Source: an uncultured Clostridia bacterium (GTDB lineage Bacteria; Bacillota; Clostridia; Christensenellales; UBA1750). From it: a stretch of 35,895 nucleotides of DNA. Made by a program: the position numbers and the translations under genes. Each line of letters begins with the position of its first letter. Positions within the stretch are counted from its first letter, which is position 1. The stretch is taken from NCBI GenBank assembly GCA_944381265.1, contig CALWKN010000188.1, positions 1 through 35,895 on the forward strand. The letters run 5' to 3'. Shown here one piece after another: positions 6,234-9,470 of the stretch. The notes beneath the pieces were generated by a model that saw nothing but the letters and a program-made list of their open reading frames with translations, had not been told where the DNA came from and ran no database searches.

Positions 6234-6398
6234 TCAGAGAAAACAGAGCGTCGCGCCGAGCAGAGCCAGCACAAGGCTCGCGATCTTTGCCGGGAGCTTC
6301 CATCTCTCCGGTATCGCCCGGCCCAGGAGCATCAGCGCCGCGCCGAGCAGCAGCAGCGCAAGCCCCACCGGGCTAAGGCTCATCAGCCTGCTGAGCAA
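6234..6398 (-). CDS. small two-helix membrane protein (54 aa from TTG, 49 aa from the ATG at 6383)
   Basis: Hand translation: LSRLMSLSPVGLALLLLGAALMLLGRAIPERWKLPAKIASLVLALLGATLCFL*. GGAGAGGAGGG RBS 7 nt upstream. High GC3 like neighbouring genes. Below the length cutoff of the ORF track. Confidence 0.5.
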   Translation of the reverse strand: MLSRLMSLSPVGLALLLLGAALMLLGRAIPERWKLPAKIASLVLALLGATLCFL

Positions 6399-6421: not shown

Positions 6422-6695
6422 AAAAAAGAAGCGCCCGTCCTTTTTATCGCAAAAGGACGGGCGCGCCGTGGTACCACCTTTTTTCGCAAGGGGACAGGCC
6501 CCCTGCCTCGTTGTCCGCGCGCTACCGGGCGCGACCCGCCGCGCGCTAAGGCCCGTATCCGCCCTTCACGCGCGCCCTGCCGCAGGCGACCTTCCGGAAC
6601 CCGGGGACCCCCTGGCGGCCTTTCAGCCGGCGAACCGCCTCTCTTGTTTGGGGCCTGATTCCGTACTCCTCCTGCCTCAACGGGGGAAAATCTAA
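6422..6695 (-). promoter_or_regulatory. T-box riboswitch leader (valine) with terminator/antiterminator
   Basis: On the minus strand. Stem I elements are AGUA opposite GAA in the specifier loop, the AGAGAG bulge and a GGCUGAAAGG distal loop. The T-box sequence is AAGGUGGUACCACGG. A 14-bp terminator stem (6431-6444 / 6451-6464) plus UUCUUUUUU follows. The likely specifier is GUC (6588-6590), followed by a purine. Confidence 0.9.
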
Positions 6696-6700
6696 CGTGT

Positions 6701-6729
6701 ATTATACCATGCCCGTTTCCGCGCGTCAA
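6701..6729 (-). promoter_or_regulatory. sigma-A type promoter of the T-box/valS operon
   Basis: TTGACG, 17 nt, TATAAT, with TG at the extended -10 position (catggTATAAT). Confidence 0.8.
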
Positions 6730-6757: not shown

Positions 6758-8131
6758 TTACGGCTTCCAGAGCGTGTAGCGGGCGGGGGCGTAGGTGCCG
6801 GCGCGAAGGCCCGCGGCGGTGTCCGCGACCACGACGCGCAGGCGGGAGACGATGGTGTCGAACGTCTCCTCGTAGACGATCTGTATCGTGCCGTCCGCCA
6901 CCAATTGGTGCGCCAGCGGCACAAGCAGCCACTGCTTGAAGTTCTCGATCTGCTCCTCCGTCCAGAACTCGCGCAAGGGGTCGTAGATCTCCTCGTCGCA
7001 GAAGCGGTCGCGCACCATGTACAGGAGGTTGGAAAAATCCTCCAGATTGCTGCCCGGCTCCAGCGTAAAGAGCATGCGGAAAAAGAGATTCCAGTCGTAA
7101 TCCGCGTTCATCTGCAGCATCAGGTGGTCGGCCAGTATGTTCAGGAACGGCTCCTTGCCGCGGAAGGGCGCCTCCAGCGTCAGCGGCGCCTCAAAGTCGA
7201 TGTCGGCCATGGCGATGCGGTTGATGCGCTGGAAGATGTCCATCAGGCTCTGGGCCGGGCGGCGGGTGATGGGGTTCTGGCGCGAGAGTATGTAGCGGCT
7301 GAGTATGTCGCAGGAGCGCTTGAAGTTCAGCGTAAAGCCCAGGGAGTCGTGCATCTTCTGGAAGAAGAGGTCGGAGATGGCCTTGGCAAAGAGGGAGCGC
7401 ACCGAGGCCTCGCGCAGGCGGCCGTCCTCCGGCTCGCTCTGGTGCTGGATCTGGTTGTAGATGAGGTAGAGCTGGCGGTCCACGGAGCGCAGGTTGTCGT
7501 AGGCGGAGGCCAGCATCTGCTTCATGAAATCGTCCATGAGGATGTAGCTGTTGTTTTTGTAGATGATCTCGTGCTCGACCTCGGCCCAGAAGACGTGCAC
7601 CAGGGCCTTGATCTGCATCTCAAAGCGCACCGCGTGGCCGATGGGGCCGCACAGGCCGTCGATGCGGTAGATGGCGTAGCCGTTGTTCTGCCGCTGCGGC
7701 TGGGGCGAGGCCATCTCCAGGCGGATGTTGGGCTGCTCCGGCGCGCAGTAGAGCCCGTCGGCGCACTTTTGCGTGAACTGCTCCCGCAGCGCGTCGTAGA
7801 GCACGGACTCCTCCTCCAGAAATCTGCACTGTATGCGCACGCCGATGAGGTCGGAGAGGTTCTGTATGATGCCCTCGGGGTAGGCGTAGCGCTTGTAGAG
7901 GTTTTTGCGCAGTATCTTTTCGCGCAGGCTCTTTTCGCCCTTGACGCGGGTGGAAATGCCCACAAGGCTCTCGCTGTGCGGGCGCAGCGCGCTGAGGAAA
8001 TAGCCCTGCAGCACCTCGGCATAGGTCTCCAGCGTCTTGCGGTTGTCGTTTAAGATCTTTACGGTCCTATCGATCAGGTCGAACACGGGCAGGCGGCTGG
8101 GCGCCTGTTCCATTTCGATTCTCTCTTCCAT
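6758..8131 (-). CDS. RelA/SpoT-fold nucleotidyltransferase (SAS-like) with an uncharacterised ~230-aa C-terminal domain
   Basis: Motifs: TRVKGEKSLREK (RxKx3Sx3K), DLIGVRI (DxxGxR), NGYAIYRI, FEMQIKAL (ExQ), WAEVEHEIIYK. No HD, TGS or ACT domains. ATG at 8131 with a GGAG RBS (the track starts at GTG 8140). Confidence 0.85.
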   Translation of the reverse strand: MEERIEMEQAPSRLPVFDLIDRTVKILNDNRKTLETYAEVLQGYFLSALRPHSESLVGISTRVKGEKSLREKILRKNLYKRYAYPEGIIQNLSDLIGVRIQCRFLEEESVLYDALREQFTQKCADGLYCAPEQPNIRLEMASPQPQRQNNGYAIYRIDGLCGPIGHAVRFEMQIKALVHVFWAEVEHEIIYKNNSYILMDDFMKQMLASAYDNLRSVDRQLYLIYNQIQHQSEPEDGRLREASVRSLFAKAISDLFFQKMHDSLGFTLNFKRSCDILSRYILSRQNPITRRPAQSLMDIFQRINRIAMADIDFEAPLTLEAPFRGKEPFLNILADHLMLQMNADYDWNLFFRMLFTLEPGSNLEDFSNLLYMVRDRFCDEEIYDPLREFWTEEQIENFKQWLLVPLAHQLVADGTIQIVYEETFDTIVSRLRVVVADTAAGLRAGTYAPARYTLWKP

Positions 8132-8165
8132 GCTTCCCACTCCGTATCCCTAGTCTCTCTCTTTT

Positions 8166-8174
8166 ATTATATCA
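8166..8174 (-). promoter_or_regulatory. extended -10 promoter candidate for the RelA/SpoT-fold gene
   Basis: TGATATAAT on the minus strand, about 35 nt upstream of the start. No good -35. Confidence 0.4.
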
Positions 8175-8276: not shown

Positions 8277-9470
8277 ATGCAGAAGATCGCCATGAAGACG
8301 CCGCTGGTCGAGATGGACGGCGACGAAATGACCCGCGTGCTCTGGAAGTGGATCAAGGAGATGCTCCTGGAGCCGTACATCGACTTAAAGACCGAATACT
8401 ACGATCTGGGCCTGCCCCACCGGGACGAGACGAGCGACCAGGTGACGCTGGACGCCGCCGCCGCCACGGAGAAGTACGGCGTGGCCGTCAAGTGCGCGAC
8501 CATCACCCCCAACCCGCAGCGCGTGGAGGAGTACCACCTAAAGCAGATGTGGAAGTCCCCCAACGCCACCATCCGCGCGATCCTGGACGGCACGGTCTTC
8601 CGCGCGCCGATCCTGGTGCGCGGCGTCAGCCCCACGGTGCGCACCTGGCAGGCGCCCATCACCATCGCCCGCCACGCCTACGGCGACGTCTACAAGAACA
8701 CGGAGATGAAGATCCCCGGCCCGGGCAAGGTGGAGCTGGTCTACACCGCCGAGGACGGCAGTGAGACGCGCGCCCTGGTGCACGAGTTCAAGGGTCCGGG
8801 CATCGCGCAGGGCCTGCACAACCTGGACGGCTCGATCTCCTCCTTTGCCCGCGCCTGCTTTGCCTACGCGCTGGACACAAAGCAGGACCTGTGGTTCTCC
8901 ACCAAGGACACCATCTCCAAGGTCTACGACCACAACTTCAAGGACATCTTCGCCGAGATCTACGAAAACGAGTACAAGGCGAAGTTCGAAGAGGCGGGCA
9001 TCACCTATTTCTACACGCTGATCGACGACGCGGTGGCGCGCGTCATCCGCTCCAAGGGCGGCTTCATCTGGGCCTGCAAGAACTACGACGGCGACGTCAT
9101 GAGCGACATGATCGCAACGGCCTTCGGCTCGCTGTCGATGATGACCTCGGTGCTCGTCTCGCCCAAGGGCTACTATGAATACGAGGCAGCTCACGGCACC
9201 GTGACACGCCATTACTACCGCTACCTCAAGGGCGAGGAGACGGGCACCAACCCCGTGGCCACCATCTACGCCTGGACCGGCGCGCTGCGCAAGCGCGGCC
9301 AGCTGGACGACATCCCGGAGCTTTGCGCCTTTGCCGACAAGCTGGAAAAGGCGGTCATCGACACCATCGAGTCCGGCGTCATGACCGGCGACCTTGCCGC
9401 GATGTACGAAGGCGAGGCCCATTCCGTTCCCTCCCGCGCCTTCCTGCAGGCCATAGCCGACCGCCTGTAA
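8277..9470 (+). CDS. icd: NADP-dependent isocitrate dehydrogenase, homodimeric type II (IDH1/IDH2-like)
   Basis: [49 protein letters not shown] and [10 protein letters not shown] are near-identical to the eukaryote-type IDH signature. The ATG at 8277 has a GGAGGG RBS (the track starts at 8214). Confidence 0.95.

Follow-up and report, generated by a model that had tools for sequence, protein, structure and literature searches.

The gene at positions 6758..8131 (minus strand) of a 35,895-nucleotide contig from an uncultured Clostridia bacterium (CALWKN010000188.1; the whole of this stretch is called the window here) encodes what is, to judge from its sequence, a member of the known and already named RelC/cloRel family of RelA/SpoT-domain proteins. 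The coding sequence is complete, with 457 codons and a stop, and was delimited from the list of open reading frames (ORFs), the sequence itself, a match to PF04607 and homologs that match along the whole length of the protein and are 445-510 amino acids long. The window protein is a rediscovery and adds no new principle. With somewhat better than even confidence, we favor the view that it is a chromosomal, stand-alone enzyme with an intact pyrophosphate donor site, a rebuilt acceptor loop and a helical tail, which serves the physiology of its own cell and has no toxin or defense role. A previous inspection of the same letters (the original prediction) had located the same ORF, and all five of the motifs that it quoted (RVKGEKSLREK, DLIGVR, EMQIKA, WAEVEHEIIYK and GYAIYR) are present in the translation. 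Its description of a non-canonical, long, single-polypeptide pyrophosphokinase homolog of the RelA/SpoT fold holds, the donor site being intact and the acceptor loop diverged. Its other proposals, that the gene is an orphan, that the product is an auto-inhibited toxin and that its position beside valS indicates a tRNA- or starvation-linked role, were not supported by the analysis.

The gene is far from an orphan. A protein search returned 184 homologs at E<=1e-3, most of them matching over >90% of the length, a library clustered at 50% identity contains 110 matching clusters at E<1e-30, and scanning a single genome for each species confirmed at least 586 loci; the family was named in 2011 and again in 2021. 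The taxonomic and neighborhood results given below refer to the best 80 of the at least 586 loci, to which the window was added for the clustering of neighbors. These 80 loci, and every named protein match, are from Firmicutes (Bacillota). The loci are found in Christensenellales, Fimadaptatus, Oscillospiraceae, Proteocatella, Filifactoraceae, Peptostreptococcaceae, many Clostridium species including C. tetani, Erysipelotrichales, Paenibacillus and Ectobacillus, and the protein searches add Turicibacter, Brevibacillus and Tissierellia. Conservation extends along the whole protein in Clostridia, Tissierellia, Erysipelotrichia and some Bacilli, and the nearest relatives of the window protein are from Candidatus Spyradocola metagenome-assembled genomes (86-89%).

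Both family names come from previous surveys of alarmone synthetases. Atkinson 2011 (PMC3153485) gave the name 'cloRel' to a Firmicutes subgroup of small alarmone synthetases (SASs); the supplement records it for C. difficile, C. perfringens and C. tetani and assigns to strain E88 of the last species Rel, RelP and cloRel alone, and the cloRel-bearing species in the accessible parts of that census, a small sample, possess Rel and RelP and no RelQ. The window protein aligns with a C. tetani ORF at 35% identity (E 1e-104; residues 14-444, two gaps), and since only these three are listed for E88, this ORF is cloRel by elimination. The second name was given in a preprint by Poudel et al. 2021 (bioRxiv 10.1101/2021.08.02.454818) to the C. 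difficile protein CDR20291_1607, RelC, which was described as possessing a putative SAS domain and, C-terminal to it, 250 residues without a conserved domain, and as having homologs only in the Firmicutes. Its ATP motif was reported to be conserved, its GDP motif to contain an insert and a glutamine in place of the invariant tyrosine, and the authors flagged several GDP-binding residues as missing. By this published description, RelC of C. difficile and the window protein are alike in the SAS domain with a tail of ~250 amino acids, the confinement to Firmicutes, the stand-alone gene, the retained ATP motif, and the acceptor-binding loop (G-loop), which carries an insert and lacks the canonical tyrosine (in the window protein, by some of the alignments). 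The window protein differs from cloRel/RelC as published in its origin from a Christensenellales-like genome, a lineage outside those papers, in a ~12-amino-acid N-terminal extension and in having a tyrosine at position 152. Our literature search, limited to the papers accessible to us, found no functional study of RelC/cloRel.

The catalytic domain has been recognized by sequence and by predicted structure. A PF04607 profile search, which the original prediction had suggested as a check, was positive: the only Pfam match in the window protein is PF04607 (RelA_SpoT) at residues 61-194 (E 1.5e-13; 51.4 bits versus a gathering cut-off of 27). The Pfam scan of the window protein detected no HD, TGS or ACT domain, in agreement with the original prediction. 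The NCBIfam model NF053588 (YjbM, the RelQ equivalog) scored far below its threshold, at 38.6 bits versus a cut-off of 320, and PADLOC gave 0 matches for the window protein. Accepted matches in searches of PDB sequences, made with the protein alone and with a 51-sequence family profile, were all RelP/RelQ-type SASs, and the HMMER alignments to RelP/RelQ chains extend to about residue 230. Local matches of 14-17 bits to ribosomal protein uS3 (residues 58-126) appeared in the first PDB sequence search, were gone with the family profile, and were rejected as chance.

The full-length AlphaFold2 (AF2) model, built from the family alignment, has a mean predicted local distance difference test score (pLDDT) of 87.8, mostly >90 over residues 13-231, and AF2, Foldseek and HMMER together delimit in those residues (7439..8095, minus strand) a SAS-type synthetase fold consisting of N-terminal helices, a five-strand core and helices alpha4 and alpha5. 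A Foldseek search of the PDB with the full-length model, for which the template modeling (TM) values are target-normalized, placed RelP/RelQ structures at the top (6ewz, 5ded, 6fgk, 2be3 and 3l9d; E 1e-8 to 1e-6, TM 0.63-0.75), followed by CapRel (7ztb; E 2e-4, TM 0.41), the FaRel/ATfaRel2 complex (8pu1; E 1.4e-3, TM 0.41) and FaRel2 (8pu4; E 3.6e-3, TM 0.39). In both sequence and modeled fold, the catalytic domain appears closest to the housekeeping enzymes RelP and RelQ. It shares with them the catalytic fold, the ATP-donor and Mg2+-binding residues, helix alpha5 and a chromosomal context of non-toxic type, but RelP and RelQ are single-domain proteins of ~210-230 amino acids that form homotetramers with a central cleft, and the window protein is twice as long.

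Conservation of the active site was assessed by counts in 222 full-length relatives. The donor site of S. aureus RelP (SaRelP) uses R78 and R112 to stack on the adenine, K80, S84, K88 and R91 for the phosphates, D107 and E174 for Mg2+, and H190 for the ribose (PMC5794853). The HMMER alignment equates R62, K64, S68, K72 and R75 of the window protein with SaRelP R78, K80, S84, K88 and R91, and D94, R99, E171 and H187 with SaRelP D107, R112, E174 and H190. On the basis of that structure and the alignment, the ATP (pyrophosphate donor) motif is R62-V-K64-x3-S68-x3-K72-x2-R75 (7907..7948, minus strand), in which R62, K64 and K72 are each found in 222/222 relatives, S68 in 218/222 and R75 in 215/222. 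The sequence D94-L-I-G97-V-R99 (7835..7852, minus strand) would provide, by equivalence to SaRelP D107/R112, the catalytic Mg2+-binding aspartate and the adenine-stacking arginine; D94 and G97 are both present in 222/222 and R99 in 185/222. The third motif, E171-M-Q173-I-K175...W182...H187...Y191-K192 (7556..7621, minus strand), would contain, by equivalence to SaRelP E174/H190, the catalytic glutamate and the alpha4 helix with the ribose-binding histidine. E171, Q173, H187, Y191 and K192 are each found in 222/222 relatives and W182 in 221/222. The original prediction had drawn attention to EMQIKA in the place of ExQxRT; the sequence is as it was given, but the family consensus is ELQIKS and the change is a conservative one. 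This retention of donor-site and catalytic residues is the pattern typical of an active ATP-dependent pyrophosphokinase.

On the acceptor side, the active site has been remodeled. DSSP analysis of the AF2 model places the G-loop (the beta3-beta4 loop) between strands 133-138 and 153-161, and DSSP together with family conservation defines a loop of residues 139-152 (7676..7717, minus strand) with the signature Q144-P145-Q146-x-Q148-K/N-N150-G151-[F/L/Y/H]152. P145 and N150 are present in all 222 relatives, Q148 in 218, Q144 in 217, G151 in 210 and Q146 in 165. Residue 152 is phenylalanine in 112 relatives, leucine in 42, tyrosine in 27 and histidine in 12, and is Y152 in the window protein. The family loop is longer than that of RelP/RelQ, and additional residues are needed there to align it to RelP. 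The RelP/RelQ G-loop carries a tyrosine that stacks on guanine and has been termed invariant in SAS and RelA/SpoT homolog synthetases (bioRxiv 10.1101/2021.08.02.454818); in three discordant HMMER alignments, this tyrosine falls opposite Q146, Q148 or residue 152. The original prediction had contrasted GYAIYR with the GYxSxH motif of RelP/RelQ: the loop has indeed diverged, but the match to GYxSxH is seen in only one of the three HMMER alignments and Y152 is not conserved in the family. The family conserves the QPQxQxNG signature to the same degree as the catalytic residues, an argument for a specific acceptor pocket.

A pseudo-enzyme without catalytic activity, which would bind nucleotides as a scaffold or sensor but no longer an acceptor, is very improbable. 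The loss of the conserved G-loop tyrosine would fit such a protein, as would the fact that activity has never been demonstrated for any member of the family; however, the donor-site and metal-binding residues, including D94, E171, Q173 and H187, are invariant or nearly so in 222 diverse sequences, and the remodeled loop is itself strongly constrained. The family protein would instead be an active Mg2+-dependent pyrophosphokinase that takes the beta,gamma-pyrophosphate from ATP and attaches it to a 3'-OH, and its acceptor would be recognized differently from the way RelP and RelQ recognize GDP or GTP. Among single candidates for the acceptor, we rank a guanosine nucleotide first, with somewhat less than even confidence, and an adenosine or other nucleotide is a serious alternative because the conserved tyrosine has been lost and the loop has acquired a new signature.

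The family could also be simply a third (pp)pGpp synthetase that acts on GMP, GDP or GTP in the same way as RelP/RelQ, with a tail that alters only oligomerization or stability. We regard this as fairly improbable. RelP/RelQ have the same donor-site and catalytic residues and the closest fold; N150-G151 followed by an aromatic residue, found in about two-thirds of members, resembles the 'NGY' of RelP, and the window protein has a tyrosine at 152. The co-occurrence of cloRel with Rel and RelP and no RelQ in the small sample of the 2011 census, as far as its accessible parts go, would also fit. What speaks against such a synthetase is that the base-stacking tyrosine is not a conserved feature of the family, that the G-loop is lengthened and bears a different, near-invariant signature, QPQxQxNG, that the authors who named RelC flagged missing GDP-binding residues, and that the score with the YjbM equivalog model is so far below its cut-off.

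The second distinguishing feature of the family is its C-terminal half. Helix 201-231 corresponds by alignment to alpha5 of RelQ, so the canonical SAS fold reaches residue 231 and the true extra region is ~232-457. The original prediction of about 230 residues of helical sequence that could not be assigned to any family is upheld in that the AF2 model is helical and no family or fold match was found, and is amended in that the extra part begins at about residue 232, after alpha5. In the AF2 model, this family-specific, all-alpha region (residues 232-457; 6761..7438, minus strand) opens with the long helix 234-264, paired with alpha5, and goes on as a helical bundle; a conserved block lies around W347-N348-x-F-F-R-x-L-F-x-x-E358-P-G-x-N362. 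Modeled alone, residues 196-457 gave a pLDDT of 82 and a predicted TM score (pTM) of 0.72. No assignment of the C-terminal half was obtained from Pfam, NCBIfam, PADLOC or PHROGs, and a C-domain profile run against PDB sequences gave one chance match only, to a de novo protein (E 1.5). The Foldseek search of the C-domain that the original prediction had recommended was run with the 196-457 model and found no significant fold match (best E 0.47 in the PDB and 0.29 in BFVD, TM <=0.2). A profile of the C-domain only retrieved 331 proteins, and the 120 of them that were listed are proteins of ~450 amino acids with PF04607, apart from a few truncated fragments; by sequence, the helical C-domain is exclusive to the fusion with PF04607 among the matches listed. 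Co-variation was analyzed by mean-field direct coupling analysis of 378 sequences (effective number 227). Within the C-domain, the charge-swapping pairs 327-374 and 321-367 looked convincing, and pairs in the alpha5/alpha6 hairpin were consistent.

RelP and RelQ oligomerize through short helices in the alpha5 region (PMC11782079), in contrast to the helical domain of ~225 amino acids found here. The helical extension may stand in place of those short C-terminal oligomerization helices. A still more specific proposal, that RelC-type enzymes are housekeeping pyrophosphokinases whose QPQxQxNG loop selects an acceptor other than GDP or GTP and whose helical domain of unmatched fold is the sensor that switches the enzyme on, is one that we put forward as speculation and consider doubtful.

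The length of the family proteins varies at both ends. Many Clostridium-type members of ~510 amino acids (for example, P0052, P0061, P0068 and P0091) have an additional C-terminal tail of ~55 amino acids with a conserved pattern (alignment columns ~640-700), which is missing from the window protein and from the ~450-amino-acid forms. Two distant relatives encoded outside the window, P0232 (743 amino acids) and P0257 (782 amino acids), carry an extension of ~270-310 amino acids N-terminal of the RelA_SpoT domain that has no Pfam match, and one cluster of such N-terminally extended distant relatives bears the name Oscillospiraceae. Relatives in the Bacillus cereus group are 531-535 amino acids long and have no annotation beyond RelA/SpoT domain-containing or hypothetical protein.

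The genomic context of the family is chromosomal and differs from clade to clade. All-against-all clustering of the ORFs around the 80 loci and the window revealed no neighboring gene shared between clades. A divergent icd gene adjoins the RelC gene in the Christensenellales (10 loci), truB-ribF lies immediately upstream of it in the Erysipelotrichales (18 loci), and a dCMP-deaminase-like gene is a neighbor in the Peptostreptococcales (11 loci). The other tightly coupled neighbors are mutually unrelated and by eye resemble PhzF, a Crp/Fnr-type regulator, deoC, a TauE-type exporter and rRNA methyltransferases. The absence of a small partner ORF beside the gene, which the original prediction had reported for the window, is borne out by the clustering, in which no such ORF is conserved. 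The neighborhood survey of orthologs that it had advised yielded clade-specific housekeeping neighbors and no antitoxin-like partner, contrary to its toxin hypothesis. Among 50,697 phage records there was no full-length match and a single match to the N-domain, at 35% coverage. The full-length plasmid matches listed are on C. butyricum replicons of 0.7-0.9 Mb and on one Acetoanaerobium record of 2.6 Mb; the 20 plasmid records with a match include 16 that are non-mobilizable. The family proteins are acidic, with a median isoelectric point (pI) of 5.1 overall and 6.0 for the N-domain.

These observations bear on the idea that the protein is a fused toxin-antitoxin or antiphage system of the toxic SAS (toxSAS) type like CapRel, in which a toxic N-domain, modifying tRNA 3' ends or making (pp)pApp, would be restrained by the C-domain until a phage or stress trigger arrives. 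The toxSAS systems (FaRel, FaRel2, PhRel, PhRel2 and CapRel) halt growth when expressed, an effect that depends on the synthetase active site. Such a system, which is close to what the original prediction proposed, is in our view very unlikely. CapRel (for example, CapRelSJ46, a tRNA pyrophosphokinase) is likewise a single polypeptide with a RelA/SpoT-fold N-domain, a further C-terminal domain and no separate antitoxin gene; CapRel (7ztb) and FaRel2 are among the weaker fold matches; the acceptor loop of the window family is non-canonical; and expression of C. difficile RelC in E. coli did not succeed. Yet RelP and RelQ are far better fold matches than any toxSAS, the match to CapRel being weak (E 2e-4, TM 0.3-0.4). 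The CapRel C-domain is a small pseudo-zinc-finger antitoxin, whereas that of the window protein is large and helical and resembles neither this domain nor any known fold. CapRel needs its G-loop tyrosine, which is not conserved in the window family. We detected no two- or three-gene antitoxin arrangement of the toxSAS kind at the 80 loci and no fused pseudo-zinc-finger domain in the C-domain fold search. The window family also differs from CapRel in lacking a PADLOC match and a defense-island or phage association: no phage record matched over the full length, the plasmid matches are on very large, mostly non-mobilizable replicons, and the neighborhoods are of a housekeeping type, stable within clades and accompanied by a broad spread within Firmicutes classes. 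The acidic pI seems unlike the need of a tRNA-binding toxSAS, a comparison that rests on the pI of the family only, no toxSAS pI having been computed. The RelC protein would rather be a cytoplasmic enzyme that serves the cell's own physiology and is not part of a toxin-antitoxin or phage-defense module.

Several points weigh against our preferred reading of a stand-alone physiological enzyme with a rebuilt acceptor loop. The G-loop tyrosine described as invariant elsewhere is not a conserved feature of the RelC/cloRel family, and a tyrosine-to-phenylalanine change at this position has been used to impair FaRel2 (PMC11782079), phenylalanine being the commonest residue at position 152 in the family; the acceptor chemistry could be quite different from that of RelP/RelQ, or weak. 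No RelC/cloRel member has been assayed, and the sole reported attempt, expression of C. difficile RelC in E. coli, failed (bioRxiv 10.1101/2021.08.02.454818), an outcome that is compatible with toxicity. The pTM of the full-length model is 0.52, which leaves the arrangement of the two domains uncertain. Co-varying pairs between the N-domain and the C-domain (115-323, 175-307, 93-334 and 155-331) are few, under-represented, weak and partly clade-driven, and were not relied on. That the helical extension might act as a regulatory, oligomerization or substrate-gating module packing on alpha5 and the catalytic domain is pure inference.

The signals for expression of the RelC gene were read from the sequence. 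Translation would start at the ATG at 8131, with GGAG 8 nucleotides upstream (a putative ribosome-binding site at 8143..8140, minus strand); an alternative GTG is present at 8140. A putative extended -10 element, TGaTATAAT, lies at 8174..8166 (minus strand), in agreement with the original prediction; it was found by eye and is not in the output of the consensus promoter scan, for which a -35 element is obligatory. For nine loci whose upstream spacer is long, Rfam detected no riboswitch or other leader 5' of the RelC gene. An antisense ORF of 382 amino acids overlaps the RelC gene (6905-8053, plus strand), and similar antisense ORFs cluster in 29 loci. These are most likely shadow ORFs and not genes, since they mirror conserved coding sequence in G+C-rich DNA. 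On the other side of the promoter region, an isocitrate dehydrogenase-like gene (8277-9470, plus strand) is divergent from the RelC gene across a spacer of ~145 nucleotides, and icd is the only neighbor of the RelC gene that is kept beyond the genus level in the Christensenellales lineage.

Downstream, the stop codon of the RelC gene is 28 nucleotides from the -35 element of a TTGACG-17-TATAAT promoter (6729..6701) with no terminator-like site seen between them, as the original prediction had said, and this promoter is followed by a T-box-like valS leader (6689..6450, minus strand). The leader covers the whole of the Rfam T-box model with 43 bits (E 3e-8) versus a gathering score of 93, and a default Rfam scan misses it because 43 bits is below that score; it keeps the GGUGGUACC box, and the G+C content of the T-box match is 70%. 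A functional link between RelC and the valS T-box, from which a tRNA- or starvation-related role had been proposed, was rejected. The valS gene is directly downstream of the RelC gene only in the window and in L005. In L002 and L001 it lies at a greater distance downstream, in L003 and L004 it is found on the opposite side of the RelC gene, and the remaining 75 loci lack it; the adjacency, limited to a few close relatives, is incidental. An ORF of 54 amino acids (6234-6398, minus strand) with two hydrophobic helices is located between the T-box terminator (6464..6431) and the start of valS (6191). It is 61-74% identical in five related metagenome-assembled genomes, where it is directly 5' of valS even when valS is not beside the RelC gene, and this conserved position makes the T-box, the small membrane protein and valS look like one unit.

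RelC/cloRel forms a sizeable branch of the RelA/SpoT proteins in gut Firmicutes and in the pathogens C. difficile, C. perfringens and C. tetani. Taken over the whole family, the analysis favors an active enzyme whose acceptor pocket is specific, whose helical domain, of unmatched fold, is exclusive to the family, and whose role is linked neither to mobility nor to defense. If its acceptor were other than GDP or GTP, there would be an undescribed nucleotide signal in the Clostridia and their relatives, or another 3'-OH-bearing molecule would be modified. Knowing what RelC makes could bring to clostridial stress physiology a new nucleotide signal or, failing that, a third regulated source of alarmone, which is relevant to C. 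difficile, where alarmone signaling affects antibiotic survival, biofilm formation and sporulation.

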